A DNA stretch of 64,000 bases, from IMG/VR virus record IMGVR_UViG_3300025543_005580, positions 1-64,000 of that record. The stretch is one strand, 5' to 3'. Shown in pieces: positions 30,157 through 51,598 of this stretch; positions within the stretch are counted from its first letter, which is position 1; each line of letters starts with the position of its first letter. A program made the translations under genes and the position numbers. Below the pieces are notes generated by a model. That model ran no database searches and had not been told where the DNA came from. It was given only the letters and a program-made list of their open reading frames with translations. This stretch comes from a virus.

Positions 30157-32841
30157 TTATTGCATTTTGTAATTAGATACAGACATTGCTGTTCCTACTT
30201 TAGTACCATCTAAATAAACATTTCCTCCTGATTTTACTGCTGCTAATAATTCATCAAATTTAGCATATAATTTATCAAGTGGAATAACAGCTTCTGCACC
30301 TGCTTCACCAACAAGAGCATTTGTGGGTTGATTTACAATACCTCCTTTAGCCATAGGTACCGCTCCTTCCATTGATACAGCCGTTGGAGTAATAGTACCT
30401 GCTCTATTTAAATCACGAGCAGCAATCCCAGCATCCGCAGCTAAAGATAAACCTGTACCTACTCCTGGTGCTACTAAATCTAAAAGTCCTAAACCAGCTG
30501 AGCCTAATTCCATTAATGCTCCAGCTCCATCGCCTTTTATTGCTCTATCAATAGCATATCCAACACCAACTACAGATCCTAAAATAGGAATTCTTTTTAA
30601 TAGACTTTTACCTGCAAACTTACCAGCGGTTTTACCAACTGTTTTTGCTAAACCTCCACCGACTTTTGCCGCTCCACCTAATAAACTTCCACCCATTTTA
30701 GAGGCACCACCTAATAATTTACCAGCACCACCTACTCCTTTTGATAATAATTTTCCAACTTTTCCAAATTTTCCCATTCTAGCAGCACGACCCAATACAG
30801 AACGTCCTCCCTTACTGCCTAATCTACCAAATACTCCTTTACCAGTCATACCTTTTCCAGGTATCATATCATTAATACCTCCACCTCCAAGACCTCCATC
30901 ACTAGTAACATGAAGAGGATCACCAATCCTTCCTGAAGGTTTGCCTCTTACTGAATTAACAATGCTTCTTCCTACAAGCATCATAGCTCCAATAGAACCA
31001 ACAACAGCGGCTATACCTCCAGCAAATTTTATTACTGCTTTAGCTGCTGGGTTGTTTTCTATCATCTCAAACATATGAGTAACACCATTTACTATTGACT
31101 CTAAGGGTCCCGCTATTAAAGATGTAAATCCATCTTTTATTCTTTGGACAGATGTAGCTAAAGCTTCACCTGATGCTTCTTGTTGTTCTTGGAGTTTTAC
31201 AGCATCTGCTATTGTTATTCCTTTGTCTTTTGCTATTTTTGCTAGTAATTCTTCTTTTCGTAATGAATCTGCTAATTCATCAGATGTCATATTTGCTGCT
31301 TTTGCTATAGCTTCTTGTTGTATAACATTTAGTTTTTGGAAATCAGTGTAGCTACCTACTTGTTTTCTAACTTCAGCAGCTGCTTCTGCTGATTTACCTT
31401 GAAGAGCTAAACTTCTTGCTCTTTCAAAATTTAAATCTTTACCAGTTAACAATTCTGCTTCTAATTCGGCGGATATTGATGATTCAAAATCTAATAATCC
31501 TTTTGTAGAATTTTTAGATTGTTCTAAAGTCATACCTAATTTTTGAGCTTGAGTTACTGCTCTAGCAAGTTCACCTGGGTTGTTTCTATAGTTAGCTCGT
31601 AAAGCACCACTTATACTAAGTGTTTCTTCTAATACTTTTTTATTACTTAATACTCCTTTATTAATACCACCTATAGTATCATATATACCTTCTTGACTTT
31701 CACCTGTAAGGATAGAATATTCGGCTATTTTAGCTGCTTCACTAGCTTGTAAACCTGCTCTATGTACTAATGCTGTTTGAGTATCTAATTGTTGTTGAGA
31801 ATATACAACGGATGTGCCTAAAGCCTCATTTAATTGTGCATTAGATTCTCTAGTACGTTGCATACTTTGAGCGGCTTCATGAGAGTTCATTGATATCTCT
31901 CTCATTTGTGCATTAAATTCTTTTGCAGTTGATGTACTAACTCCTAAATTACGTGCTATTTCTGCTGTTTGTAGACTAGTTTCAGTACCTATAGTATATA
32001 ACGTACTTGCTATTTTACCTAAAACGGCTAATTGTACTGCTGGGTCGTTAAGGAGAGAATCTTTTAAAGTACTAAATATACCCCCAATAGCAGCACCTAT
32101 AACTTTAAAGCCACTACCTGTTTTTGCAGCCGTTCGCATACTTTTAGAAATTTCATCTATTGATTCAGATTCAATTCCTATTTTACTTAAAGTACCTGCT
32201 ATTCCTTTAAATAATTGCCCTGTAATTCCTAGGGTTTTTTGAATTTCTCTTTCAAGTTCTACGTGCTCCTTTGTCTCTCTAACAATTTTGTGAAGTGAGG
32301 AGTATTCATCCTCTAATGCGTCATTTACTTCACTAATATATTTAGGAAGTTCTTTTAGTCTTTTTGCCTCGGAAGCATCAAGTTTTTCTGTTTTTTGCTT
32401 TTTTTCTAATTTTTCTTTTTCTAATATAGCATTTTGTCCAGATACTCTTAAACGTTCTAGCTCTGCCTTAAGTTGTTTATATTGGTTTTTTAATTGTTGT
32501 AAGGATAAAACATTTTCATCCTTTTTATGTTCTGAAAGTTTTTCTGAGGAGGAAATAATATTTCTATAAGACTTATTTATGTCTTTAAGGACTCCTGAGG
32601 TACCTGTTAATTCTTGATATGAATCATTAAGAGACTCTGTTAAACCATCATATACATTTGCTAATTCCTGAACCTCATTGTTCATGAGTCGAACTTGAGC
32701 ATTGGCTGATTTTAGATTTCCATCAAATGCTTTAGTTAATTTATCTAAATTAGCAAAACCATCCCCACCTAAACGCTTTATTTCTTCATTTAGTTGTTTT
32801 ATGCGTTTTATTGCATCATCATATTGTTGATTACTAGCCAT
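30157..32841 (-). CDS. Tail tape measure protein
   Basis: Long helical Ala/Gly-rich protein downstream of the tube and chaperone genes; C-terminal MAKGGIV..PT.ALVGEAG.EAVIPL. Confidence 0.85.
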   Translation of the reverse strand: MASNQQYDDAIKRIKQLNEEIKRLGGDGFANLDKLTKAFDGNLKSANAQVRLMNNEVQELANVYDGLTESLNDSYQELTGTSGVLKDINKSYRNIISSSEKLSEHKKDENVLSLQQLKNQYKQLKAELERLRVSGQNAILEKEKLEKKQKTEKLDASEAKRLKELPKYISEVNDALEDEYSSLHKIVRETKEHVELEREIQKTLGITGQLFKGIAGTLSKIGIESESIDEISKSMRTAAKTGSGFKVIGAAIGGIFSTLKDSLLNDPAVQLAVLGKIASTLYTIGTETSLQTAEIARNLGVSTSTAKEFNAQMREISMNSHEAAQSMQRTRESNAQLNEALGTSVVYSQQQLDTQTALVHRAGLQASEAAKIAEYSILTGESQEGIYDTIGGINKGVLSNKKVLEETLSISGALRANYRNNPGELARAVTQAQKLGMTLEQSKNSTKGLLDFESSISAELEAELLTGKDLNFERARSLALQGKSAEAAAEVRKQVGSYTDFQKLNVIQQEAIAKAANMTSDELADSLRKEELLAKIAKDKGITIADAVKLQEQQEASGEALATSVQRIKDGFTSLIAGPLESIVNGVTHMFEMIENNPAAKAVIKFAGGIAAVVGSIGAMMLVGRSIVNSVRGKPSGRIGDPLHVTSDGGLGGGGINDMIPGKGMTGKGVFGRLGSKGGRSVLGRAARMGKFGKVGKLLSKGVGGAGKLLGGASKMGGSLLGGAAKVGGGLAKTVGKTAGKFAGKSLLKRIPILGSVVGVGYAIDRAIKGDGAGALMELGSAGLGLLDLVAPGVGTGLSLAADAGIAARDLNRAGTITPTAVSMEGAVPMAKGGIVNQPTNALVGEAGAEAVIPLDKLYAKFDELLAAVKSGGNVYLDGTKVGTAMSVSNYKMQ

Positions 32842-36806: not shown

Positions 36807-38006
36807 TTAAAGGTTAAGTATTTTATTAATTGATTCGATTACTTTTGTAGGTTTTATTGTTTTAGTACATTCAAACTGTCTTGTTGTATCTTTATGATCA
36901 GGGCACCATTCCCAATCACCTGGATTTAGCCATTCTCTATTAAAACATCCTGTACATACATTTTCATCATAGTTAAATACGCGTTCACAACTTAAAAACT
37001 CACTATATGGTAAACTAAATCCTGATATTAGAATTGTTGGAGTACCAACTGCCCATGATAACCAACTTAAACCACTTCCTAATCCTATAAACCCAGAAGC
37101 ATATTTTAAATCTACCATTCTGTCTTCAATCGGATAATCTCCAGTTTTATCAATTACTCCTGTTAATGTTCCCCCTAATTTAGAATCATGCCAATCATCT
37201 CCTAAACGTTCATGGGTAATCATTACTACTTTATATCCTTGATCTTTTAAATAGTTAATTATTGTTTGCCATCCTCCTGGATGATTCCAATACTTGGCAT
37301 GTGCCGAAGCGTGTGGGGCTATACAAACGTATTTCCCATCAATTTGTTGTCCTTTATTAGGTATTACAATACGTGGTTTTATTTCTGTATAATCTAAACC
37401 TAAAATAGAGGTTGAGGATTGTCCTAATGGGTGTTTTTTAAACTCAATAGGAATTTTATTTTCATTAACTGTCCTATCTTCATTATAATGCCAACCAATA
37501 CTATACATTGCGTATATGTTATTAACTTCAGTTCCTGGTTTTATAAATTCGATTTCAGGATATTCTGCTTCAAACCATTCATTGTGGAATGTAGAACATA
37601 CTACTTTACACTTGTGTTTTTTTCTAAATTCATCTACATAAGGAAACCAAGCTAATGTATCACCTAAGGCTGATGAATCTAAATGGATATAAACTCTTTT
37701 ATCCGTAGCATCATATAAGTATTCAAAATCAATTTCATTTGTTTCTTTATTAACAACTTCAATTTTCCACTTAACAAAATATTCAATATTAGCCTTAGTC
37801 CACATATTATTAGATACATCACAAGTATAACGAACTCTACCTGTCTTATGATCAATAAAATTAACAGTATACTTAGCTTCATTAGATCCTAAAACTTCTA
37901 AAAATGCTCCTTTTACAAAATTAAATTTAAAGGTGTTTGTACCTTTTTTAAAAGGTATATTTAATTGTTCTAAATTATTGTATTCTTGAATTAATACTTC
38001 TTTCAT
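36807..38006 (-). CDS. Aah/TibC-like protein O-heptosyltransferase family (GT-B)
   Basis: ALGDTLAWFPY..EF...H, AKYWN.P.GW, FIGLGSGLSWLSW..GTP..LISGFS.P..EF, and Cys cluster CTGC...CP.H....FEC. Confidence 0.85.
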   Translation of the reverse strand: MKEVLIQEYNNLEQLNIPFKKGTNTFKFNFVKGAFLEVLGSNEAKYTVNFIDHKTGRVRYTCDVSNNMWTKANIEYFVKWKIEVVNKETNEIDFEYLYDATDKRVYIHLDSSALGDTLAWFPYVDEFRKKHKCKVVCSTFHNEWFEAEYPEIEFIKPGTEVNNIYAMYSIGWHYNEDRTVNENKIPIEFKKHPLGQSSTSILGLDYTEIKPRIVIPNKGQQIDGKYVCIAPHASAHAKYWNHPGGWQTIINYLKDQGYKVVMITHERLGDDWHDSKLGGTLTGVIDKTGDYPIEDRMVDLKYASGFIGLGSGLSWLSWAVGTPTILISGFSLPYSEFLSCERVFNYDENVCTGCFNREWLNPGDWEWCPDHKDTTRQFECTKTIKPTKVIESINKILNL

Positions 38007-38947
38007 ATGATTTCTTTAAATAATTCTATTAATTCTCTTGAACGATTTAACCATGATAATTCATTCGCTGTATTTATAGAGCGAGTACGGTATTCTGGAT
38101 ATTCGTTTATAATTGTATCTAGGCCTCTTAGCATTTCTCCTAAATGACGTGGGGATCTCCATAATCCATGAAAATCAGTTTCCATCTCAATCCATCCTAA
38201 AATAGGTAAACCACAAGCTGCTGCTTCTACTAATGTAAGATTAGGATGTCCAGCTTCCAAATCTGAAGGATGGAGAAATATTGTATGTGATGTATATAAA
38301 TTTCTAAGTTCTTTATTTGAGGGTTCCCAAACAACATTTAATTTATCATACCCATAAGCCCAAGGGTTATCATTAAACCAATTTTCATTATTTTTAGGAC
38401 CTGCTATTGTAATTGGTAAATTACGAGACATAGCGGTTTGAATACCAAATGTAAATCCTTTTCTATCATATGCACCATAACCACCTAAACCATTATTTGC
38501 TAACATTAATAACTTATGATCTGTTGGATATGTGTTATTAGGATAAAAATCATTAGTATTCACACCATGTGAAAAATACATAACTTTATCCGTTTCAAAA
38601 TAATCAACTAAATAACGAGCAGGAACTAATGATAATACTGAGCGTTCCATTGCTTCTAGATTTTGTTTATATACATAAGAATTTTTACCATAATGATATG
38701 CATGATGGTCATGATGTTGGAAAACATAAGGTACACCCCTATCTGCTAATTCTAAGGCTAAATTAGCTACGTGTACCATTACTATATCATAATCTCCAGG
38801 TTGTACTTCACTTGACCATTTTAAATCAACTTCATGTCCTAATTCCTTAAGATTACATATAAATTCCCATACAATTTTTTCAATAGCTCCCCACGATGGT
38901 GGAGGTATTGGGATACCACAGCCTGGGTTTATTTGTGCTATTCTCAT
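38003..38947 (-). CDS. Glycosyltransferase, GT4-like
   Basis: IPP..WGAIEK, HGVN...F.P, RKG and PS..E....TLVEAAACGLPI (EX7E-like). Confidence 0.85.
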   Translation of the reverse strand: MRIAQINPGCGIPIPPPSWGAIEKIVWEFICNLKELGHEVDLKWSSEVQPGDYDIVMVHVANLALELADRGVPYVFQHHDHHAYHYGKNSYVYKQNLEAMERSVLSLVPARYLVDYFETDKVMYFSHGVNTNDFYPNNTYPTDHKLLMLANNGLGGYGAYDRKGFTFGIQTAMSRNLPITIAGPKNNENWFNDNPWAYGYDKLNVVWEPSNKELRNLYTSHTIFLHPSDLEAGHPNLTLVEAAACGLPILGWIEMETDFHGLWRSPRHLGEMLRGLDTIINEYPEYRTRSINTANELSWLNRSRELIELFKEII

Positions 38948-40905
38948 CTAATTGTTAATTGGCCGTTATTTGTTAAATCATCAGTTGATAATATTTTAGT
39001 ATCAACTAATCCTAATTTATCAATTATTGTAAATTTAATTCTACTACCTTTAATATAAGGAATAAGTTTATAATAATCTATTTTTTGATTAACTTCAATT
39101 ACATCTATATGGGTTTCTTCTCCATTGATATATGATGATATTTCAATTGTTTTACTTTCCTTAGCATTAGATATTCTAATAAAAGGAGCTATCATATTTT
39201 CTTTATTAGTAGGCAACACTGTATAATATTCTACTCTTGAAAAGTCTTCATGAATAAATGAAGTAGATATTAATTCATTGAATTTATCTTCAGATTCATA
39301 ATATATGTTTGAGAGATTTTTAAAAGCATGATACATCATATTTTCATACCCATTAGATTCACTACCCCATTCATTACGTAATAACTCATAATCATTAGTA
39401 TTCATTATTTTTGGGATATTATCTAAATAAAAACTAGAGTTAATTCCTAAAAAATAAGTATACACAGTATCTCCTTCAGCCGCTTTATATTTTCCTAAAT
39501 ACGCATTTTTATTATTTAAAATTTTAGATATTTTATCTATACCTTCTGAGTTGGTGAGGATATAATCATAATTTAGGAAATATACCTTTTTATAACCTAA
39601 ATTATTAGCTAATGCTGCTCCGTTATGATAATTAGAATAACAACTAGGACCGTGGTATATATCATTATCATTACCTCGTAAATTAATTTGAATATCTGCT
39701 TCTTGAGTTGAGGTATAATAATTACAATAATATGAATGTTTTGTTAAAATATTATTATTATCATTAATAGTATAATCTGCTAGTTTTGATAATTCCTCTG
39801 GGATAGGAATATGTGAAGTTAGTATTACTTTTCTACCTGTTGCTTTAACAGATTCAATACATTTTTTAGTTGTAGAGATTACACTATCGGAATTAGGATA
39901 AGTAGAAATTATAAATATTTCATTTTCCGGTGTTACTGTTATTTCCTCTCCTAAAGTTTGTAATATTAAATTTTTATTTTTATCTAAATCATCAAACTCT
40001 AAATAATTAACACTATCATATGAATCAAAGTAATTTTGATATACTTCTAAGTTATACAATAATTGGGGAATTTGATATGATAACGCCTCCCGAATTACTA
40101 AAGGCATAGTTTCCTTATCATTATTAGTACCGCGTGAAGTAAATAAAAATAAGTCCATTGATTGGTAAAAATTATTTACATCCGTACGTTCATTCCACCA
40201 AGTTAAGTTATCTGGTTTATTAGCCATTAATGGTTCCCAATACCATTTAAAATTATCTGCTTGATTACCTACACTATGAAATTCGATATCGGGTAACATT
40301 TTAGCATATTCAAAAAATTCTGCTTGATTTTTACGTGATGTAAATAATCCAATATGTAATACGTGTTTTTTATCTGGATTTAATCCTAATTTTTTTAATG
40401 CTTTACTCCTATCAGGACGATCAACATATTCAATAGGATATTCTACTAATATTTTAGGAATATCTATATCTTTATATTGATCAATTTGCCATTGAGATAC
40501 AAACATAAATTTGTCTGGAAAGAATTGTTTATTGTCTGTATCGAATGAAGAATCATGTGATGTTTCTACAATTTTATATGAACGATTAGTATCATATATT
40601 TTTTCCATAATATCCTTTGGAAAATGAGCTAATTCAGGAATTTCTTCTAAATGAATAATATCGGGTTTGATTCTATTAATTATATCTAAAATTTCTGTTT
40701 TATCTTCTCCTAAAGTATAAAATCTTTCTGTAGGTAATAGAGCTTTAATCTTATTACGAGTTACAACTAACACACCTCCAGTTACATCCGCCCATTCAAT
40801 TAAATGAATTTCATATTCATCTTTTAATAGTTCAATTTTTTTAGTTAAATATTGAGGTAAACCTCCAGTAGATAAATGGGGGGCAATGTATAATAACTTT
40901 TTCAT
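38944..40905 (-). CDS. Glycosyltransferase: GT4-like N-terminal domain plus a second domain
   Basis: PHLSTGG.PQ, HIGLFT.RKNQ, DLFLFTS and E.MPLV.REAL; C-terminal part contains a YD motif. Confidence 0.8.
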   Translation of the reverse strand: MKKLLYIAPHLSTGGLPQYLTKKIELLKDEYEIHLIEWADVTGGVLVVTRNKIKALLPTERFYTLGEDKTEILDIINRIKPDIIHLEEIPELAHFPKDIMEKIYDTNRSYKIVETSHDSSFDTDNKQFFPDKFMFVSQWQIDQYKDIDIPKILVEYPIEYVDRPDRSKALKKLGLNPDKKHVLHIGLFTSRKNQAEFFEYAKMLPDIEFHSVGNQADNFKWYWEPLMANKPDNLTWWNERTDVNNFYQSMDLFLFTSRGTNNDKETMPLVIREALSYQIPQLLYNLEVYQNYFDSYDSVNYLEFDDLDKNKNLILQTLGEEITVTPENEIFIISTYPNSDSVISTTKKCIESVKATGRKVILTSHIPIPEELSKLADYTINDNNNILTKHSYYCNYYTSTQEADIQINLRGNDNDIYHGPSCYSNYHNGAALANNLGYKKVYFLNYDYILTNSEGIDKISKILNNKNAYLGKYKAAEGDTVYTYFLGINSSFYLDNIPKIMNTNDYELLRNEWGSESNGYENMMYHAFKNLSNIYYESEDKFNELISTSFIHEDFSRVEYYTVLPTNKENMIAPFIRISNAKESKTIEISSYINGEETHIDVIEVNQKIDYYKLIPYIKGSRIKFTIIDKLGLVDTKILSTDDLTNNGQLTIR

Positions 40906-40911
40906 AAATTT

Positions 40912-41505
40912 TTATTTAAAATGTGAACCACCTAACCATAATACTAAGGATCTCCGGGTTCCCCTAGTTATAGGTGAAACTCTGTGGAGGATATATGAAG
41001 GAAACAATACAGCAACTCCTTTTCCTCTAATTGTTTTTTCTGGGGAACCACCTCTTAATACTTCTAAATCACCACCTTCATAATCATTTGTGTCTGATAA
41101 TTGTATTGTGACTGATACTTTTCTAATACTTAATTCTCCAGGGCCTATATCTTGGTGCCAATCATAATGACCTCCATTATCGAAATATTCTGTAAATTGG
41201 ATAGATTCAGGCATCGAGTGTAAATCAAAATTCCATATTGAATTTGCTTCTTTAGCTAATTCTGATATTCTCCAGTAGATCCAACTAAATTCATCAGTTT
41301 GGGGGACCCATCTAACTGTTGATTTTCTAATACCTGTGATTTCATCAGCTTCACCACCACCAGCTATACTAGCATGTTGGGTAGGAATTTTACTGCAATC
41401 CGTAATAATTTTATCTATCTCTTCGGGTGAAAATGCTTCTTGAAACCAATAAAATTCTGTTGGATTAGTATCGTAATTTGGATCAAAATTATAAAATGTT
41501 TTCAT
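40912..41505 (-). CDS. 2OG-Fe(II) oxygenase, prolyl-hydroxylase/PKHD-like
   Basis: Y.WHQD (HxD), RK.S...QLS, YEGG.L and FPS...HRV.P.T.G.R.SLV.W. Confidence 0.9.
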   Translation of the reverse strand: MKTFYNFDPNYDTNPTEFYWFQEAFSPEEIDKIITDCSKIPTQHASIAGGGEADEITGIRKSTVRWVPQTDEFSWIYWRISELAKEANSIWNFDLHSMPESIQFTEYFDNGGHYDWHQDIGPGELSIRKVSVTIQLSDTNDYEGGDLEVLRGGSPEKTIRGKGVAVLFPSYILHRVSPITRGTRRSLVLWLGGSHFK

Positions 41506-41508
41506 GTA

Positions 41509-42159
41509 TTAATATCTTGGGGGTTCTGGTTTATCACAATCAAAAAAGAACATATGAAAATATCTAGAGTTATAAATGTTATCTCCAAAATATTCACTAG
41601 CAGCATGAATTGTACGAGCATCCCATACTGCTAATCTATTATATACATTACCAATTTTATCTATTAATTCTAATTTAGTTTTATCATAATAGTTACCATT
41701 CGGGAAAGTATCATTATATATTTCGCTTCCATTTTCCCAAGGTTCAAACCTTGTTTTTCCTGTTATTCTAGAACGATAAAAATTAGTACCTGATTCTGGT
41801 GGAGCATCTGGGGTTAAAAATACTACAGCGGCATATTGTTGGGTATCACAATGGTATACTAATGAATCTTGGGCATTACAAAACTGAAATACGCCATTGT
41901 AATTATAATCCCAGTTAGTTATTTCACGTTGTAATATTTTTTCAATTTTTTCTTTTGTACCTTCAACTATTAATTTTTCATGACTACGTTGTCCTTTATG
42001 CCATTGAGATGGTTCAAAATTAAAATTATTTATAGTAAAATCCCTAATACCATCAGGGTCATTATAAAAATTATCTACAGCTAATACTGTGATTTCATGT
42101 CCATTATTAATACCTGAACGGGTTAATTCGTGAAATTGTTTAAATTGTTCTGTCATCAT
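41509..42159 (-). CDS. 2OG-Fe(II) oxygenase-like protein (DUF6445-like)
   Basis: VDNFY.DP, HCD (HxD), FLTP.AP..SGT and NVYNRL......HAA..FG....R. Confidence 0.75.
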   Translation of the reverse strand: MMTEQFKQFHELTRSGINNGHEITVLAVDNFYNDPDGIRDFTINNFNFEPSQWHKGQRSHEKLIVEGTKEKIEKILQREITNWDYNYNGVFQFCNAQDSLVYHCDTQQYAAVVFLTPDAPPESGTNFYRSRITGKTRFEPWENGSEIYNDTFPNGNYYDKTKLELIDKIGNVYNRLAVWDARTIHAASEYFGDNIYNSRYFHMFFFDCDKPEPPRY

Positions 42160-43400
42160 AGTTCTCTATATCCTGGTCTACGTTTATCACTTTTAATAGC
42201 ACTTAAATAAGCTCGAGTAACAGGGATATTATTTTCATACATAAATTCATCTGGGAAGTATGTATCTAGTACATATGATTGGAAATGGATTTTATCATTA
42301 TAAATAAAACCAGCATGTAATTTTTTAGTATAATACCAAAATGAATTTTCATTCCAATAACTTACGTGTGTAGGGTCTTGAAAAGCTCCTCTACCATCTG
42401 TAGAAGGGACTTCAATAAAAGCCCATGCACCATCTGCTAATACTCTATGCATTTCAGACATAGTAAATTGTTTATCAGGTAAATGTTCAATTACATGAGA
42501 TGCATTTATTACACCAATTGAATTATCTTCAAATGGCCATTTTTGCGTTAAATCCGCAGTAATATCTCCATTCGTAATATCCACCGACTCATATCCTTCA
42601 CGCGGGTATAAACCACCACCTATGTCAATTTTACGTAAACCTTTTAGGTCAGCATCTCGTTCAGCTAAACGTTGTTGCCATTCATACATCATAGCAACTG
42701 TTCCTTCTTGAATTTCTTGATTACGCTCTAACCATGTATTTTCTCCATAAATTCTATAAAAATAAAGTGTTTTAGGAATATATTTAAATAGAGTAATCAT
42801 GTATGTTCTCATCATTAATTCCTGATCATCCAAAATAGATAATTCTGGGTTATGACCTCCTACTTCTCTATAAATAGATGCTCTCCAAGAACGAACATGA
42901 TCAGGAGCAAACCAAATAAGAGATACACAATTTGCTGATGGTTCAAATGAATCCATAGAGATATAATGTTTACCTTTCCATTCAGCTTGTCTATAAGTCC
43001 AACCATATTCTTCTCCATAAGGAACAAAATCATCCTGTAGTTTAGCATTATCACTATATACAAAACCAATTTCAGGGTCTTCAAATGCTTTTGCTACTTC
43101 TGATAGACAATCAGGGGTAATAACATCATCATGATCTACTTCTACTAGAATATCACCAGTTGCAATATGGAATGCTTTGTTTTTTAGATACCCTACGTTT
43201 GTACTTAATGGGGTTTTAATATCATGGTGGATATTAACCCTAGGGTCATTAACTATTTCAGATGATAAATCATCTTTACGTAGACCTCCATTTAGATAAA
43301 GAAGCCATTCCCAATCTTGATATGTTTGGTCTTTTAATGAATCGTACAATTCATTTAAATATGTTCCCTTGTGGGTTGGTGTAACTACACTTAATTTCAT
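42156..43400 (-). CDS. GT2 glycosyltransferase fused to a class I SAM methyltransferase
   Basis: SVVTPT, VDHDD (DxD) and DD.EL..R; C-terminal IDIGGG, WPFEDNS, SHVIEH, EMHRVL and DPTH. Confidence 0.88.
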   Translation of the reverse strand: MKLSVVTPTHKGTYLNELYDSLKDQTYQDWEWLLYLNGGLRKDDLSSEIVNDPRVNIHHDIKTPLSTNVGYLKNKAFHIATGDILVEVDHDDVITPDCLSEVAKAFEDPEIGFVYSDNAKLQDDFVPYGEEYGWTYRQAEWKGKHYISMDSFEPSANCVSLIWFAPDHVRSWRASIYREVGGHNPELSILDDQELMMRTYMITLFKYIPKTLYFYRIYGENTWLERNQEIQEGTVAMMYEWQQRLAERDADLKGLRKIDIGGGLYPREGYESVDITNGDITADLTQKWPFEDNSIGVINASHVIEHLPDKQFTMSEMHRVLADGAWAFIEVPSTDGRGAFQDPTHVSYWNENSFWYYTKKLHAGFIYNDKIHFQSYVLDTYFPDEFMYENNIPVTRAYLSAIKSDKRRPGYREL

Positions 43401-43453: not shown

Positions 43454-46400
43454 TTAGTTTATTTTTTTAGCAATAAGGTGTGCACTTTTTATATAATGTT
43501 GGTTTGTTGCAGAAGCAAATGTATACATAGCTATTATATCACCATTATTAAGGTAAAAACAACCATATACTTTAGCAGCACATTGGTGACTAGTAGTTGA
43601 ACCTGTTACTTTAGTTCTACCTGAGGATAAATAGTTGTTTGTATTGGTTGTTTTAACTAATTTAACAATAGTAGCTCCTAAATCTTGAGATCCATTGTTT
43701 TCTTCAACATTTACAATACCTTCTATATAATACATTCCGGTAACACCAATTTGTAAACCACCATATGTTTGACCACCTACAACTACTGGGGTTACATTAC
43801 CATAAGGTAATGATATTATATTCATTGGTGCTGTTACTGCTGTAGCATCTGAGGTTCCTATAGTAACATTTAATCCTTGTCCCCATATACCATCACCACC
43901 TTCAGATAAACCACTATATCCTGAAGGACCTGTAGGACCATTTGAACCTGTATATCCTGTATATCCTTGGGCTCCTCTAGAACCTTGAGGTCCAGGATTA
44001 TTTGTACCTTGATATCCTTGAGCACCTTGAGAACCTGTTGGATTACTACCTTGATATCCTTGAACACCTTGAGAACCTTGGGGACCTCTACCTCCCTGTG
44101 CACCACTAGGTGCCCCTGGGTCTCCTGTAGGTCCTTGGGTACCTTGAGCACCTCTTGGATTTGGACCTGCTACTCCTTGATAACCTTGACTACCACGACC
44201 ACCTTGACCACCTTGAGAACCTGTACCACCTTGTGGACCGCGGTTTGCTCCTTGATAACCCTGAACACCTGGATTACCATTAGGAGTAGGACCAGATTGA
44301 CCTTGACCACCTCTACCACCTTGAGGACCTTGATAACCCTGAAATCCTCTAGTAGTATTTGCTGTACCTTGACTACCTTGATCACCTTGAGGACCTCTAT
44401 ATCCTGTTGGTTGATTACCTTGATATCCTTGAGGTCCTTGAGTTCCTTGAGAACCATTTGGCCCTCCATGTCCTTGATACCCTGTACTAACTCCTTGGGT
44501 ACCTTGAGGTCCAGTTGGTCCTATATATCCTGTTGGTTGATTACCTTGATATCCTTGAGGTCCTTGAGGACCTCTTGGTGTTGGTGATCCTTGAGTACCT
44601 TGAGGTCCTTTAACTCCACTTTGGGGTCCTTGATAACCTTGAGGTCCTATATATCCTGTTGGTTGATTACCTTGATATCCTTGAGGTCCTTGAGGACCTC
44701 TACCTGTACCAGGACCTGTGTATCCTTGAGGTCCTTGGGGACCACCTTGATAACCCTGAGGTCCTTGATAACCTCTATATCCTGTTGGTTGATTGCCTTG
44801 GTAACCCTGAGGTCCTTGAGGACCTCTACCTGTACCTGGTCCTGTATATCCTTGTGGTCCTTGAGGACCACCTTGATAACCTTGAGGTCCTTGATATCCT
44901 TGGTATCCAGTTGGTTGATTACCTTGATATCCTTGAGGTCCTTGAGGACCTCTACCTGTACCAGGACCTGTGTATCCTTGAGGTCCTTGGGGACCACCTT
45001 GATAACCCTGAGGTCCTTGATATCCTTGGGCTCCTGTAGGTTGATTACCTTGATAACCTTGAGGTCCTCTATATCCTTGATAACCTTGAGACCCACCTCC
45101 ACCTTGATCACCTTGTGGTCCTCCTTGGTAACCTTGAGAACCACCAAATCCTGTTCTACCACCTAATCCTGTTGGTGATGTACCTTGATATCCTTGAGGT
45201 CCTTGCGTTCCTCTACCACCTTGACCACCTTGTGGTCCTGTATTACCACCTTGATAACCTTGTGAACCCTGATTTCCTTGTGAACCTCTAGGTTCTGGTC
45301 CTCTAATACCTTGGTAACCTTGTGATCCCTGACCACCTCGTCCTCCTTGAGGTCCTCGATAACCATTAACACTACCTTGATAACCCTGAGGTCCTTGGTA
45401 ACCTAAATATCCTTGTAAGCCCTGGTAACCTTGGGCACCACCTCCACCTTGAGTACCAACAGTAGTATTTTGTCTACCTACACTATCAAATAACTCATTT
45501 GGATCAATCTGCCAAGTTGATGATCCTGGTTTTTGCCAGTATACTCGTAAACCATCTCCACCACCATATTCTTGCATTCTAGCTTTAAAGTTGTAAGCTA
45601 CACCTGCTGTTAACGAAATGGTACCTGTTGTAGTACCAATAGGAGGTGTACCTCTACCGCCGTAGAAGCCACATACAAACGTATTATTAATGTATAAATC
45701 ACCGGAATCATCCGATTCACATGAGAATGTATATGTACCTGTTTCTGTTGGTACAAATGTACCAAATACTACAAATGAGTAATAGTCACCTGAGTTTGGA
45801 ACAGGGACACCTGCATTTACGAGTGTGGTATAGTTTAAAAAGTCAATACCAACAGTAGCATCAATTTGACCTGAACCAACCAATGATGTGGCTGCTTGGG
45901 TTGTATTTAATAAAATATCAAATTGGGGTGAATTTAATGGGTAATTAGTAAATCCGTTATTAATATAATCTGCTGAGTTACCATTACCATAGTGGGTAGA
46001 AAATACTTCATATGATAATATACCTACATCTTTTTTAATACCTTGATATCCTTGAGGCCCTTGATAACCTTGTGAACCACCAACACCATTTATACCTATA
46101 ATTCCTTCATAACCTTGAACTCCTTGACTACCTTGAGCACCACCTGCACCTGGAGAAGGGGTTGCCCCTGTATTTCCTCCTTGTCCTGGGTTGCCACCTA
46201 AACCGGCACGTCCTAAATTTCCTGTTCTACCTCCAAAACCTTGAATTCCTTGACTACCTTGACCACCTTGAGATCCATTAGGACCTGAGTATCCAGAATG
46301 ACCAAAAAGACTATCTGTTTTTCGAAGTGTCTTAGATACAGGGTCTACTGTAAGATATGTTTCTATGCTAGGATGTGTTGTTATAGTTTGGATATCAGCA

Positions 46401-46489
46401 TATGATCCTGATAGTATAGCGTTTTCCACAATTGATTGTGTAGTAGAACCACTAACATATATCTTATTTCCAGTTATTTCTAAACCCAT
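43454..46489 (-). CDS. Collagen-like fibre protein with an inserted PA14 domain and a C-terminal beta-rich (C1q/BclA-like) head
   Basis: N-terminus MGLEITGN; GPQ/GYQ triplets; PA14 motifs G.F.P..TGTYTF...SDD..L.IN and W..PG; head motif VTGMYYI. Confidence 0.85.
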   Translation of the reverse strand: MGLEITGNKIYVSGSTTQSIVENAILSGSYADIQTITTHPSIETYLTVDPVSKTLRKTDSLFGHSGYSGPNGSQGGQGSQGIQGFGGRTGNLGRAGLGGNPGQGGNTGATPSPGAGGAQGSQGVQGYEGIIGINGVGGSQGYQGPQGYQGIKKDVGILSYEVFSTHYGNGNSADYINNGFTNYPLNSPQFDILLNTTQAATSLVGSGQIDATVGIDFLNYTTLVNAGVPVPNSGDYYSFVVFGTFVPTETGTYTFSCESDDSGDLYINNTFVCGFYGGRGTPPIGTTTGTISLTAGVAYNFKARMQEYGGGDGLRVYWQKPGSSTWQIDPNELFDSVGRQNTTVGTQGGGGAQGYQGLQGYLGYQGPQGYQGSVNGYRGPQGGRGGQGSQGYQGIRGPEPRGSQGNQGSQGYQGGNTGPQGGQGGRGTQGPQGYQGTSPTGLGGRTGFGGSQGYQGGPQGDQGGGGSQGYQGYRGPQGYQGNQPTGAQGYQGPQGYQGGPQGPQGYTGPGTGRGPQGPQGYQGNQPTGYQGYQGPQGYQGGPQGPQGYTGPGTGRGPQGPQGYQGNQPTGYRGYQGPQGYQGGPQGPQGYTGPGTGRGPQGPQGYQGNQPTGYIGPQGYQGPQSGVKGPQGTQGSPTPRGPQGPQGYQGNQPTGYIGPTGPQGTQGVSTGYQGHGGPNGSQGTQGPQGYQGNQPTGYRGPQGDQGSQGTANTTRGFQGYQGPQGGRGGQGQSGPTPNGNPGVQGYQGANRGPQGGTGSQGGQGGRGSQGYQGVAGPNPRGAQGTQGPTGDPGAPSGAQGGRGPQGSQGVQGYQGSNPTGSQGAQGYQGTNNPGPQGSRGAQGYTGYTGSNGPTGPSGYSGLSEGGDGIWGQGLNVTIGTSDATAVTAPMNIISLPYGNVTPVVVGGQTYGGLQIGVTGMYYIEGIVNVEENNGSQDLGATIVKLVKTTNTNNYLSSGRTKVTGSTTSHQCAAKVYGCFYLNNGDIIAMYTFASATNQHYIKSAHLIAKKIN
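44660..45060 (-). repeat. 126-bp (42-aa) tandem repeat, about 3 copies
   Basis: TACCTGTACC recurs at 44701, 44827 and 44953. Confidence 0.9.
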
Positions 46490-46503
46490 TATATTATTTT
46501 ATT

Positions 46504-46511
46504 ATAAATAT
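46504..46511 (-). promoter_or_regulatory. Putative late-promoter motif ATATTTAT (representative copy)
   Basis: Same motif just upstream of starts at 9631, 30144, 32861, 34488, 36512, 36788 and 49032; ATATGTAT variants at 12642 and 33907. Confidence 0.55.
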
Positions 46512-46512
46512 T

Positions 46513-49026
46513 TTAAATTGAAATGATGTTTATTGTAAGATAGTTCCATATTGATTGTAATCCTGCAGATGTTGTAGTATTAACTACTGCTACTTTAGCA
46601 GATAGTAATGCCCCTGAGTTATTAAAATCATACACCCCAGCCATACTAAATGTAGTAACGTGAGCGTTGCTACTAGCTGTATATCCTCCTGTACCTGATA
46701 ATGGTCCATTACTACTATCATATAAATAACAATATAGTTTATCGTTACTAAATTGATCATATATAGTAAAAGATGTTTGAATATAATATACTCCAGGATT
46801 TAATGATATTTGATTAGCATCCCTTCCACTTACAATTCCTGTAAATCCATTAGATGAATATAGAGTAAGTGATGGACTATCAGGCATTCCAGGATCAGGT
46901 AATTCTGGGTCTTTCCATATAGGTGCACCATCTGCACAAATCACACCCCATTCACTACCTCCATTATTAGCAGTTGTATCTGCTCCTCCTGGTCCTGTTG
47001 GTCCTGCACTACCACCAGCTCCTGTAGGACCTCCATATCCTTGTACTCCTTGAGGTCCAGTTGAACTTGTGCCTTGAGGACCTATAATACCTTGTGGACC
47101 TTGAGAACCCTGACCTCCTCTAGCATATCCTGTATAACCAGTAGGACCTCCATACCCTTGTGGACCCCTTGGTGCTTGAGATCCTTGAGATCCTTGTGAA
47201 CCTACATATCCATTATATCCTTGAGATCCTTGTGAACCTGCTCTATTTACACCTTGTACACCATTATACCCTTGTGGACCTTGTGGTCCTAAAGGAGAAA
47301 CAGGTCCTTGATAACCTTGAGGACCTTTATATCCTATAGCACCTTGAGCACCTTGAGGTCCTTGAGAGCCGGCTTTATTTACACCTTGGTAACCTTGAGG
47401 ACCTCTATATCCTGTATAACCATTATATCCTTGAGGTCCTCTACTACCTGTATATCCTTGAGGTCCTGTATATCCTTGAGGTCCTGTTAAACCTTGACCA
47501 CCTGCTATACCAGTATATCCTGTTCTACCTAAAGGACCTTGGGTACCTTGAGAACCCCTAAGACCTGTAGGGCCTTTAAATCCTTGACTACCTTGGGAAC
47601 CTCTACCACCTTGAGCACCTTGACCACCTGCTATACCAGTATAACCAGTATAACCACCTGGACCTTGGGTACCTTGGTATCCTCTACCACCTTGAGATCC
47701 ATAATGTCCTTGTGGACCTGGGTTACCGGCACCACCTTCAAGTCCGGTACCACCTGCTATACCAGTGTATCCTGTATAACCTCCAGGACCTTGAGTACCT
47801 TGAGGACCTCTATATCCCGTGTGACCTACTATACCAGTATAACCAGTATAACCACCTGGTCCTGTTAAACCTTGACCACCTGCTATACCAGTGTATCCTG
47901 TATAACCTCCAGGACCTTGAGTACCTTGAGGACCTCTATATCCCGTGTGACCTACTATACCTGTATTTCCTGTTCTACCTCCTGGTCCTGTTAAACCTTG
48001 ACCACCTGCTATACCAGTATAACCAGTATAACCACCTGGACCTTGGGTACCTTGAGGACCTCTATATCCCGTGTGACCTACTATACCTGTATTTCCTGTT
48101 CTACCTCCTGGTCCTGTTAAACCTTGACCACCTGCTATACCAGTGTATCCTGTAGGTCCTCCAATTCCTGTAAGACCTTGTGGACCTTGATAACCTTGAG
48201 GTCCTACATATCCTATAGATCCTTGACCACCACGACCACCTTGACCACCACGACCACCTTGAGCTCCTGTAAATCCGGTTGCATTTATATATCCTTGAGG
48301 ACCTTGATATCCTTGAGATCCTTGGGTACCTACAAATCCAGTTCTACCTGTATAACCAGTATATCCTTGTGGACCCTGATTACCTTGAGTACCTACTCTA
48401 CCTACATATCCATTATATCCTTGGGGACCCTGGTTACCTTGGGTACCTATAGGTCCAACATATCCTGTTCTACCTCCAGGTCCACCTGTACCGTTTATTC
48501 CAATTATACCATTAGCGCCTTGAGGTCCATAAAAACCTGAAAGTCCTTGGTTACCTGGGGCTCCTATTATACCTGTATATCCTAAGTTACCTGTTCTACC
48601 ATTAACACCTTGACCACCTTGTGGTCCTTGTATACCTAATATTCCCTTAGGACCAACATATCCAGTAGGTCCTTGAGCACCTTGAGGTCCTTGATTACCT
48701 CCACCACCTTGATTACCCCTACCACCTTGAGTACCTCTACCACCTTGACCACCTTGAGGACCTCCAGTACCAGTAGGACCAGTATATCCAGTTCTACCTT
48801 GATTACCTTGTGAACCTTGACTACCACGTCCTCCTGTGTGTCCTGGTGTTTTAGCACGTCTATATAATACTCCATTAGTATCTACACCAATGTAATTACC
48901 TGTGGATGGATTTGAAGATAATACATCAACAACGGGAACATTTCCATCAAAAATCACATTTTCAATGTGAACTTCTGTATCAGTTCCTGTTGCTATTATC
49001 GTATTATTTGTTATTTGTAATCCCAT
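46513..49026 (-). CDS. Collagen-like fibre protein with a C-terminal globular head
   Basis: N-terminus MGLQITNN; about 620 aa of Gly-X-Y (GYT, GPQ, GGR); head motif NPGVYYI. Confidence 0.88.
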   Translation of the reverse strand: MGLQITNNTIIATGTDTEVHIENVIFDGNVPVVDVLSSNPSTGNYIGVDTNGVLYRRAKTPGHTGGRGSQGSQGNQGRTGYTGPTGTGGPQGGQGGRGTQGGRGNQGGGGNQGPQGAQGPTGYVGPKGILGIQGPQGGQGVNGRTGNLGYTGIIGAPGNQGLSGFYGPQGANGIIGINGTGGPGGRTGYVGPIGTQGNQGPQGYNGYVGRVGTQGNQGPQGYTGYTGRTGFVGTQGSQGYQGPQGYINATGFTGAQGGRGGQGGRGGQGSIGYVGPQGYQGPQGLTGIGGPTGYTGIAGGQGLTGPGGRTGNTGIVGHTGYRGPQGTQGPGGYTGYTGIAGGQGLTGPGGRTGNTGIVGHTGYRGPQGTQGPGGYTGYTGIAGGQGLTGPGGYTGYTGIVGHTGYRGPQGTQGPGGYTGYTGIAGGTGLEGGAGNPGPQGHYGSQGGRGYQGTQGPGGYTGYTGIAGGQGAQGGRGSQGSQGFKGPTGLRGSQGTQGPLGRTGYTGIAGGQGLTGPQGYTGPQGYTGSRGPQGYNGYTGYRGPQGYQGVNKAGSQGPQGAQGAIGYKGPQGYQGPVSPLGPQGPQGYNGVQGVNRAGSQGSQGYNGYVGSQGSQGSQAPRGPQGYGGPTGYTGYARGGQGSQGPQGIIGPQGTSSTGPQGVQGYGGPTGAGGSAGPTGPGGADTTANNGGSEWGVICADGAPIWKDPELPDPGMPDSPSLTLYSSNGFTGIVSGRDANQISLNPGVYYIQTSFTIYDQFSNDKLYCYLYDSSNGPLSGTGGYTASSNAHVTTFSMAGVYDFNNSGALLSAKVAVVNTTTSAGLQSIWNYLTINIISI
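47750..48150 (-). repeat. 126-bp (42-aa) tandem repeat, about 3 copies
   Basis: GTGACCTACT recurs at 47821, 47947 and 48073. Confidence 0.9.
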
Positions 49027-49039
49027 TATATATAAATAT

Positions 49040-51598
49040 TTAAGACAATTTTGTTATCATTAAGCAAGATGATCCTTGTTCTGGGGATTGGCTAAAATTC
49101 ATTAGACCTCCTGTTAAGTTGTAAACTCTAGGATACCTGGTTGATATAGATCCAAAAGTATAAGTCATAGCTATTGTTAATCCTGTTACTATTAAACCTG
49201 CAGTAGCATAGTTAGATACATTTTCAAAGGTTGCTAATTCAGCCCCACCATTTCCAGGAATTATTGATTGTTGATCGTTAAAATCAATCATTACAGTTTC
49301 TGATGTTGTACCTACATTAAGTCCTCCTTGTATTGGTTGGTTGCAACTAAATATAACACTATATTCTATATAATAAGTACCTGCATTGAATTGAATATTA
49401 TTTGCATTTACTGTTATACCGGCAATACTACCAATAGGAGAACCACAACTCAAAATAGACATTGTATTATTAGCTATTCCATTTTCACTTAATGGGACTA
49501 TAACTTTAGAACCACCATTTGGATCACCTAAACCAGGTGATCCTGTAGGTCCAGTACCTGAACCAGAACTACCTTGACCACCTTGAGAACCTCTTCTACC
49601 ATTAGGCCCATCTTCTCCATTAACTCCTGTAGGTCCTTGTGATCCTCTATATCCAGAATAACCTGTATTTGCTGCTGTTCCTTGGGGACCTCTACCACCT
49701 GGTCCTCCTGTATATCCTCCTGGTCCTCCAAATCCAGTATAACCAACTCCACCAGTACCACCTTGTGGACCTCTATATCCTGTATTTGCTGTTGAACCAA
49801 CTTGACCTTGTGGTCCTTGATAACCACTACTACCTCCTCTTGTAACACCGGCAAATCCAGTAAGACCTTGACCACCTTGATTTCCTCTATGTCCTTGATA
49901 ACCTGTATATGAAGTAGAACCTGTAGGTCCAGTATATCCTGCTAATCCACCACCTCCTTGTGGTCCTCTATATCCTTGAGAACCATTAATACCATTAAGA
50001 CCTTTTGGTCCATTATTACCTTGAGGACCTTGAGGTCCTGGGCCTGCTCCTTGAGGACCTCTAGGTCCAGTAGGTGGGGCATATGAACCATATCCTTGTG
50101 GTCCTTGATTACCTTGACCACCAACAATACCATTATATCCTTGTGGTCCTTGATTACCTTGAGGTCCAGGACCTGATCCTTGAGGACCTCTTCCACCAGT
50201 AGCGGCTAGGAAGGCTGTATATCCTTGAAGACCGGGTTGGCCTTGAGGTCCAGTGGCTCCTTGATTACCTTGACCACCTTGAGGACCTTGAGGTCCTGTA
50301 GTACCACTTTGAGCACCTCGAGCTCCTGGGGCTGCTGTTCGACCAGTATATCCTTGAGAACCACGTCCACCTTGGCCGCCTTGAGTACCTCTACCACCTT
50401 GACCACCTTGAGGACCTTGAGGTCCTGTTGTTGAGCTTTGAGCACCTCGAGCTCCTGGGGCTGCTGTTAGACCAGTATATCCTTGGGAACCACGTCCACC
50501 TTGGCCGCCTTGAGTACCTCTACCACCTTGACCACCTTGAGGACCTTGAGGTCCTGTAGTACCACTTTGAGCACCTCGAGCTCCTGGGGCTGCTGTTCGA
50601 CCAGTATATCCTTGAGAACCACGTCCACCTTGGCCGCCTTGAGTACCTCTACCACCTTGACCACCTTGAGGACCTTGAGGTCCTGTTGTTGAGCTTTGAG
50701 CACCTCTACCACCTTGACCACCCTGAGGGCCTCTATACCCAGATATACCCCTAGGTCCTGTACCTCCTTGATTTCCTATATATCCTTGAACACCTTGGTA
50801 TCCTTGAGGGCCTGTAGGACCTGAACCACCTTGTGGACCTCTAGGTCCATTAAATCCAGTGTATCCTCCTAATCCAGTAGGACCTTGTCCCCCTTGATTA
50901 CCTCTACCTCCAGTAGGTCCAGTATAACCTGTAGGACCATTTACTGTACTTTGGGTACCTTGAGAACCTTGAGGTCCTCCAAATCCTGTTATACCGTTAT
51001 TACCTTGAGGACCTTGACCACCTTGATTACCACGTCCACCTTGACCACCTTGAGAACCTTGTCCACCTTGTACACCTCTTAAACCTGTATTTCCTCCAGC
51101 TCCTCCTGAAGCACCCGGAGTACCTTGTTGTCCAACAGGTCCTTGTGAACCTCTACCTCCTTGTGGACCTCTATATCCTGTAAATCCTTGATTTCCTTGT
51201 GTACCTTGACTACCACGTCCTCCAGTAGGTCCAGTGTAACCACCTCTACCTCCAGGACCTGGGGTACCTTGATACCCAGGTACTCCTTGATATCCTGTAA
51301 CACCTTGATTACCTTGTGATCCTTGGTTTCCTTGAGCACCTTGACTTCCACCATTACCTGTACGGCCTGTATTTCCTGTATATCCTTGGGGTCCTTGAGG
51401 TCCTTGTGAACCCGCACTTCTTACAGTATCATATACTCTAGCTCCGGAAGTTGTGAAGGTTACAAAATCACCATCATTAGAATGAGTTTGCAGGTTTAGG
51501 ACGACAGGGTTCATTGACCCTGTCATCACTACTGTCCTCATATCTATATCATTAGAACCTGTTGGAAAGATTCTATTGCCTGTTATTTCTAAACCCAT
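49040..51598 (-). CDS. Collagen-like fibre protein with a C-terminal globular head
   Basis: N-terminus MGLEITGN; about 630 aa of Gly-X-Y; head motif NAGTYYI. Confidence 0.88.
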   Translation of the reverse strand: MGLEITGNRIFPTGSNDIDMRTVVMTGSMNPVVLNLQTHSNDGDFVTFTTSGARVYDTVRSAGSQGPQGPQGYTGNTGRTGNGGSQGAQGNQGSQGNQGVTGYQGVPGYQGTPGPGGRGGYTGPTGGRGSQGTQGNQGFTGYRGPQGGRGSQGPVGQQGTPGASGGAGGNTGLRGVQGGQGSQGGQGGRGNQGGQGPQGNNGITGFGGPQGSQGTQSTVNGPTGYTGPTGGRGNQGGQGPTGLGGYTGFNGPRGPQGGSGPTGPQGYQGVQGYIGNQGGTGPRGISGYRGPQGGQGGRGAQSSTTGPQGPQGGQGGRGTQGGQGGRGSQGYTGRTAAPGARGAQSGTTGPQGPQGGQGGRGTQGGQGGRGSQGYTGLTAAPGARGAQSSTTGPQGPQGGQGGRGTQGGQGGRGSQGYTGRTAAPGARGAQSGTTGPQGPQGGQGNQGATGPQGQPGLQGYTAFLAATGGRGPQGSGPGPQGNQGPQGYNGIVGGQGNQGPQGYGSYAPPTGPRGPQGAGPGPQGPQGNNGPKGLNGINGSQGYRGPQGGGGLAGYTGPTGSTSYTGYQGHRGNQGGQGLTGFAGVTRGGSSGYQGPQGQVGSTANTGYRGPQGGTGGVGYTGFGGPGGYTGGPGGRGPQGTAANTGYSGYRGSQGPTGVNGEDGPNGRRGSQGGQGSSGSGTGPTGSPGLGDPNGGSKVIVPLSENGIANNTMSILSCGSPIGSIAGITVNANNIQFNAGTYYIEYSVIFSCNQPIQGGLNVGTTSETVMIDFNDQQSIIPGNGGAELATFENVSNYATAGLIVTGLTIAMTYTFGSISTRYPRVYNLTGGLMNFSQSPEQGSSCLMITKLS
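50270..50720 (-). repeat. 129-bp (43-aa) tandem repeat, about 3.5 copies
   Basis: AGCTCCTGGG recurs at 50321, 50450 and 50579. Confidence 0.9.

Follow-up and report, generated by a model that had tools for sequence, protein, structure and literature searches.

Matched rod lengths in three tandem collagen-like genes of a T4-like marine phage: a candidate heterotrimeric fibre

Different collagen chains can wind into one triple helix and, to our knowledge, such heterotrimers, along with the questions of chain selection and register that come with them, are known only from animals; the bacterial and phage collagens characterised so far are, as far as we know, homotrimers encoded by single genes. 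In C1q the Gly-X-Y repeat is broken in chains A and C and not in B, and the TNF/C1q fold includes known heterotrimers. BclA of the Bacillus exosporium has a glycosylated Gly-X-Y rod of variable repeat number and a trimeric, TNF/C1q-like C-terminal domain. Here we analyse three tandem genes for collagen-like chains, A, B and C, in IMG/VR virus record IMGVR_UViG_3300025543_005580. The window, that is the whole stretch of 64,000 nucleotides under analysis, is the first 64 kb of this 112-kb phage record, whose completeness is estimated at 69%. We report that selection very probably keeps the rods of the three chains at one length, and we weigh the possibility, which we put a little short of an even chance, that the chains form one mixed ABC collagen triple helix.

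The three genes lie on one strand with spacers of 23 nt (A/B) and 13 nt (B/C) between them (Table 1). A preliminary description, made from the letters alone, had presented them as paralogues with the common start MGL(E/Q)IT(G/N)N, an N-terminal domain of about 62 amino acids (aa), some 610-630 aa of collagen in each chain without the insert of A, and heads of about 150 aa with a G.YYI strand; all of this is borne out. The N-domains (62/61/62 aa in A/B/C) are homologous, with shuffle z-scores of 8-15. A search for proteins homologous to the N-domain of B returned nothing at E <= 0.001, and AlphaFold2 (AF2) on the N-domain alignment reached a predicted local distance difference test score (pLDDT) of 56, too low to interpret. 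After subtraction of the 192-aa insert of A the Gly-X-Y rods measure 618/622/629 aa, with 188 perfect triplets in A, 202 in B and 187 in C. The heads (139/154/161 aa) have the G-x-YYI strand in common and are barely alignable in pairs (z = 1-4). Pfam recognises the collagen repeat (PF01391) in each chain (E = 5e-23 in A, 2e-52 in B, 2e-33 in C) and a PA14 domain (PF07691) at aa 234-328 of A (E = 2.6e-10, 40.7 bits, with the cut-off at 24); at E <= 0.01 the scan of the three chains gave nothing besides these. PHROG tail-fibre profiles 5073, 6320 and 819 match with E = 1e-42 to 1e-87, over stretches that fall mostly in the collagen repeat; none of these matches identifies the anchor or the head. 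The breaks in the Gly-X-Y repeat are rich in Ser, Thr and Asn (GNQPTG, Y-I/T-NATG, TAAPGARGAQSGTT), and B contains an N-A-T sequon.

Central repeats of 126, 126 and 129 bp, with units that differ between the genes, had also been described, and Tandem Repeats Finder recovers them. Within a gene the core copies share 95-100% protein identity (95-98% for three core copies in A). Between genes, the units are 33-45% identical in the best cyclic phase, and the identical positions are mainly glycines.

Table 1. Features of the collagen-like locus and its neighbourhood in the window.
Feature	Extent or composition	Position	Strand	Basis or remark
Chain A	1011 aa	43454-46489	minus	ORF (open reading frame)
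A, N-domain	aa 1-62	46304-46489	minus
A, rod part 1	aa 63-152	46034-46303	minus
A, globular insert	aa 153-344 (192 aa)	45458-46033	minus	with PA14 domain
A, rod part 2	aa 345-872	43874-45457	minus	about 28 breaks
A, tandem array	126 bp (42 aa) x 5.4 copies, 81%	44394-45068	minus	Tandem Repeats Finder
A, head	aa 873-1011	43457-43873	minus
Chain B	837 aa	46513-49026	minus	ORF
B, N-domain	aa 1-61	48844-49026	minus
B, rod	aa 62-683	46978-48843	minus	7 breaks; unbroken runs of 62 and 100 triplets
B, tandem array	126 bp (42 aa) x 3.2 copies, 93%	47749-48154	minus	Tandem Repeats Finder
B, looser extension of the array		47491-48259	minus
B, head	aa 684-837	46516-46977	minus	TNF/C1q-like (AF2 model)
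Chain C	852 aa	49040-51598	minus	ORF
C, N-domain	aa 1-62	51413-51598	minus
C, rod	aa 63-691	49526-51412	minus	15 breaks
C, tandem array	129 bp (43 aa) x 3.4 copies, 93% DNA identity	50267-50706	minus	Tandem Repeats Finder
C, head	aa 692-852	49043-49525	minus
Giant Gly-Thr/Ser-rich, proline-poor triplet-repeat protein	4333 aa	51608..64000 (genome end 64609)	minus	9 nt upstream of C
Modification cassette		36807..43400	minus	profile matches
GT2+methyltransferase		42156-43400	minus	cassette
DUF6445		41509-42159	minus	cassette
2OG-Fe(II) oxygenase		40912-41505	minus	cassette
Two GT1-type glycosyltransferases		38944-40905, 38003-38947	minus	cassette
GT9/TibC-like enzyme		36807-38006	minus	cassette

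Relatives were found by N-domain pattern searches and comprise 2 viral and 15 metagenomic contigs of about nine lineages. The gene order giant protein, C, B, A, GT2/methyltransferase (GT2/MT) is identical in all 17, and the triad is neither reduced nor expanded in any of the lineages. Net rod lengths (aa, in the order C/B/A) are 619/622/608 in the window, 618/622/605 in L010, 657/664/647 in L009, 625/631/611 in L012-14, 656/663/? in L018, 615/622/605 in L019-22 and 633/634/about 626 in L024+L025. Over this range of 605-664 aa the lengths of C and B are correlated with r = 0.99 when the outlier L015 is excluded (permutation p ~0.001), and those of A and B with r = 0.97-0.997. Independent variation of length in relatives had been set beforehand as the refutation of a heterotrimer, and it is not seen. 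Because the lengths co-vary among relatives, we take the match to be selected and not a product of chance; that selection maintains equal rod lengths of A, B and C is the conclusion of which we are most confident.

The long forms L009 and L018 are not sisters, and each has gained about 42 aa in every readable gene. Since each of them is nearer to short forms than to the other, a coordinated gain of 42 aa must have arisen at least twice. In L009 each of the three genes has its own tandem duplication, different in sequence from the other two. The axial positions of these insertions (~173-265 in all three chains) were also considered and were set aside as uninformative, duplications being possible only within the central arrays.

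The quantity that is conserved is the total length and not a given set of repeats. A reading of the three arrays as recent parallel expansions peculiar to this genome has to be abandoned, as the 42-aa period is seen in every orthologue examined. The number of near-identical copies varies among orthologues at constant total length, and so does the identity of the amplified units. The rod of B, for example, is 622 aa long with one or two 'NAT' units and 663-664 aa long with three or four (overall range 0-4). The expectation that copy numbers would co-vary among the three genes thus holds for total rod length and fails for near-identical copies. From these comparisons the 42-aa period is ancestral, and the units of the arrays are constantly being gained, lost and homogenised while total length is conserved. 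Moreover, PA14 is missing from the A orthologue in L025, whose rod is still matched, so PA14 does not count toward the length. In the same contig (L025:4491-7250) the frame of A passes from the head straight into the interior of the GT2/methyltransferase gene (motifs PYGVEYGW and EWKGKHYI), a join that represents a deletion, a gene fusion or a chimeric assembly.

Could the match have arisen without selection, from common ancestry of the paralogues, changes in 42-aa quanta and artefacts of repeat assembly? The arrays have their period and their central location in common in all paralogues and orthologues, which would fit one ancestral gene; in addition, short-read assemblers can collapse or expand 126-bp repeats, and L013, L021, L015 and L023 are off by whole units. 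This explanation is nevertheless very improbable, as lengths vary from lineage to lineage (605-664 aa here, 180-608 aa in the second family described below) and yet match within each genome; coordinated changes occurred in non-sister lineages; the composition of units turns over at constant total length; the three L009 insertions differ in sequence and are sited outside the near-identical arrays; and the permutation p is the one given above.

A second family of marine phage contigs, reached via the GT2/MT neighbour and then by a scan for the Peptidase_S74 domain, holds two or three tandem collagen genes that end in a C-terminal Peptidase_S74 (PF13884) intramolecular chaperone. Seven such sets have rods of 509/508/497, 384/389/384, 300/296, 400/411, 180/189, 593/608 and 341/345 aa, and the paralogues of a set are 41-56% identical in the chaperone domain. 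The number of matched genes never exceeds three among the sets found. Judged by these gene sets, length locking of tandem collagen paralogues is a general phenomenon, found over a more than threefold range of length and between old paralogues. The S74 domain (SD-x-R-x-K motif) was not matched in A, B or C; the analogous triad of L029/L055 has it. In L055, L066 and L067 the broken paralogues are interrupted at an exact period of 35 aa (GSSPTG, GTSVAG) and the sister chain has no breaks; in L055 and L113 the length that the broken chain lacks relative to the perfect one equals its number of breaks. In L040, L041 and L050-L052, which have related GT2 and 2-oxoglutarate (2OG) oxygenase genes, a single collagen-like gene of 599 aa (possibly incomplete) up to 915 aa, starting with MALTLRSQKGSALTWQEMDDNW, stands instead of a triad; these contigs are a natural single-gene comparison group.

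We propose that A, B and C are transcribed together and supply the chains of a single collagen-like fibre system of the virion. Each chain would have an anchor of 62 aa at the N terminus, then a rod of some 620 aa that would span ~178 nm if triple-helical, and a trimerising head of TNF/C1q type; from gene order and matched length the chains probably belong to one physical assembly. In our leading reading, equal length would be imposed by co-assembly into a mixed ABC triple helix, nucleated in the style of C1q by a heterotrimeric head, by the N-domains or by both. Breaks peculiar to one chain, and in A the PA14 domain, would be accommodated as single-chain bulges on a helix splinted by the near-perfect B. 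Such a helix would account directly for the locking of lengths, for the strict retention of three genes and for the fact that PA14 does not count toward length. A difference of 42 aa (~12 nm, 7%) should in turn matter little to three independent flexible rods of 180 nm. There is a parallel in the fibre of the virophage DSLV2, reported to be a heterotrimer made from three consecutive paralogous genes (PMC12724248). The fullest form of the proposal, an obligate ABC helix of ~180 nm with a heterotrimeric TNF/C1q-like cap, in which one near-perfect chain would splint two much-interrupted and probably glycosylated ones and which would be the first C1q-style heterotrimeric collagen outside animals, is put forward tentatively, as something that falls just below an even chance of being right.

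Three separate homotrimeric fibres, A3, B3 and C3, equalised in length from outside, are a serious possibility as well, at somewhat less than an even chance. They would dock via their homologous N-domains and present three TNF-like receptor-binding heads, A3 adding three PA14 sugar-binding knobs; the outside constraint could be a tail-length ruler, with the fibres stowed between two fixed points of the virion, the bundling of the rods side by side or a common level of the heads.

It is in the breaks of the rods that the evidence against a mixed helix is concentrated. A has 29 breaks, B 7 and C 15, and they do not align between chains. A stretch of 303 aa in B (100 perfect triplets) runs unbroken opposite about 17 breaks of A and about 7 of C. 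In three genomes (the window, L009 and L010) B and C have no pair of breaks within 3 aa of each other, and coincidence between B and A in the window is at chance level. C and A coincide at 8 of 15 breaks (p ~0.005-0.01); as a register signal this is discounted, because an equal period in one chance phase and the paralogous C-terminal 100 aa explain most of it. Each chain strongly keeps its own pattern between orthologues (28/30 in A), as if each had its own rod design, which would suit three homotrimeric rods of different stiffness. A also shifts its triplet frame every 15-27 aa, and a perfect partner chain cannot follow it without about 28 local distortions. The sets of the S74 family behave alike: typically one chain is perfect and another periodically broken, and their breaks never coincide. 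In a heterotrimeric collagen one expects the breaks at corresponding axial levels, and those of the triad do not lie at such levels.

Over 16 sets the summed spread of length is 120 aa if triplet slots including breaks are counted, 143 aa for total residues and 498 aa for perfect triplets. The matched quantity is thus total residues or slots, which do about equally well and do not tell the models apart, and not perfect triplets; the match in total residues can be listed among the points for homotrimers and is compatible with either model.

Individual contigs add further points of the same sign. In L015 (JAAHTG010002734.1, 5400-5620) an in-frame TAA interrupts the C gene 24 codons ahead of its conserved terminus, ...LMISKLA; the rod has two deletions of about 42 aa, and C is 83 aa short; B is intact. 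This C may be a pseudogene or a sequencing error, and the contig suggests that B can persist with a damaged C, as separate homotrimers would allow. In L013 (+42 aa) and L021 (-42 aa) B alone differs from near-identical contigs, the partner arrays lying outside the contigs in question, and L060 and L075 have S74-type sets of unmatched lengths. All of these exceptions, those of a single gene included, may be true variants that segregate or may stem from short-read misassembly of the 126-bp repeats. That S74-type sets hold either two or three genes also speaks for homotrimers, as does the prophage collagen fibre EPclA, in which a single chain trimerises by itself (PMC3368898).

The heads bear on both readings. 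For the B head, AF2 with 10 orthologues gives a ten-strand jelly roll at a pLDDT of 70, and Foldseek finds for this model 243 PDB matches at E <= 0.001, mostly TNF-family ligands. The best ones, at E ~1e-5, are TNF, TL1A, EDA, BxpB and the cyanophage fibre heads 8KE9 and 9K09. The predicted structure thus places the B head in the TNF/C1q class at the level of fold, although the Pfam models of C1q and TNF have no match in A, B or C. Comparison of head profiles shows weak relationships, of B to C with 89.5% probability over 79 columns, of A to C with 92.8% over 19 columns only, and of A to B with 24.8%; the same fold is plausible in the heads of A and C. The nearest phage structures to the B head are fibre tips, and among B orthologues the N-domains are 79-90% identical while the heads are 21-54% identical between distinct lineages; receptor-binding proteins of phages usually combine an anchor that is conserved with heads that diverge quickly, and these points fit homotrimers.

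What counts against homotrimers is the equality of length itself. We know of no reason why separate fibres should be equal to within 1-3% over 180-664 aa, with compensation by 42 aa on two occasions, or why the triad should never be smaller or larger in about nine lineages. In phages with several fibre sets the lengths are usually unequal. As for a tail-length ruler, the rod of ~178 nm should exceed the tail that an 894-aa tape measure protein would set, at most ~134 nm at 0.15 nm per residue. The corresponding frame in L010 has 862 aa, against 894 aa here, and 24% identity, with equal fibre length; its divergence stands beside well-conserved fibre genes. The gene is absent from the L009 contig, and no usable match to it came from genomes of the S74 type.

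On balance the heterotrimer proposed in the preliminary description is partly supported: the length lock and the TNF/C1q-like head of B speak for it, and the register of breaks, the stop codon in L015 and the B-only variants do not. The probability left after the alternatives discussed here falls to other arrangements.

The window has a G+C content of ~31% and all its genes are on the minus strand. The source is an uncultured T4-like marine phage and the host probably belongs to the Flavobacteria; a ribonucleotide reductase in the window is 75% identical to its counterpart in Flavobacterium phage vB_FspM_immuto. The phage GenBank collection, immuto included, contains no near DNA match to the triad and no match to the N-domain of A. 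Beyond collagen low complexity B has no counterpart in this collection, whole-protein matches being due to that low complexity only. Transcription proceeds from head genes (beyond the window) through the giant protein, C, B, A and the modification cassette to the tail genes, namely those for tail sheath, tail tube, baseplate hub and the 894-aa tape measure protein. The latter (30157-32841) has a C-terminal region like a peptidase or lysin, where PHROG profiles of endolysins and peptidases match aa 650-857. The giant protein, whose length is not matched to the triad, consists of ~3800 aa of proline-poor Gly-Thr/Ser triplets (GTSGSSGT...) between globular N- and C-terminal domains, with the Gly position regularly substituted (ASALSAT, LSRTS); if collagen-like in extension, it would be more than 1 micrometre long.

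The cassette downstream of A would, to judge from its profile matches, probably supply hydroxylases and glycosyltransferases that modify the fibres, with the adjacent oxygenases and glycosyltransferases probably acting on the rods. It is syntenic with collagen genes in both phage families, which otherwise differ (the window; L029:6946-11257; L058:6882-11152), and this conservation suggests dedicated hydroxylation and glycosylation of the fibre.

Whatever the assembly, a phage operon bears a strong evolutionary signature of three different collagen chains kept at one length, with a natural series of lengths (605-664 aa; 180-608 aa in the S74 family) and with modifying enzymes next to it. If the chains do co-assemble, the operon would be a small, expressible microbial model of heterotrimeric collagen assembly, of use also in the design of registered ABC collagens; if they do not, an unrecognised ruler would set the length of several phage fibres together.

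Among known systems C1q resembles the triad in its three tandem paralogous genes, short N-region, equal-length rods and jelly-roll head, a fold that is recognised here in B only. It differs in having a rod of ~80 aa against ~620 aa, breaks at one matched level against some 50 unmatched ones, and a proven heterotrimer against a putative one; the resemblance is one of fold, with no Pfam C1q match. With heterotrimeric collagens in general (C1q and the animal types I, IV, VIII and IX) the triad has in common distinct chains that are made together and are of equal length. BxpB (8D02) is like the B head (Foldseek E = 2.8e-5). BclA, in contrast, is a single-gene homotrimer of the bacterial spore surface, without homology in the N-terminal anchor and without length-locked paralogues. 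Among phage structures the B head is best matched by TNF-like fibre tips, the CBD of the short tail fibre of cyanophage A-1(L) (8KE9) and the A4 portal-tail chain (9K09_A), at E = 1.4e-5 to 2.1e-5 and TM ~0.54-0.58; their identity is 13-14%, and they have no such collagen rod and no paralogous triad.

The S74-type fibres (L055, L058, L064, L066, L067, L087 and L113) are like the triad in having two or three tandem collagen paralogues of matched length and the same adjoining cassette of 2OG oxygenase, glycosyltransferase and GT2/MT. They are unlike it in their different, 35-aa N-domain, in a self-cleaving chaperone instead of a TNF-like head and in the lack of PA14. The EPclA-D proteins, side tail fibres of Escherichia coli O157 prophages, also combine a collagen triple helix with terminal trimerisation domains, in chains that trimerise singly, with short collagen and with ends of the PfN, PfC and coiled-coil types (PMC3368898). 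The tripartite tail of DSLV2 is gp37-tip-like, ~16 nm long and not collagen, and its genes are unrelated to those described here; like the triad, it is encoded by three consecutive paralogous fibre genes, and its reported heterotrimer is backed by AlphaFold3 and co-purification (PMC12724248).

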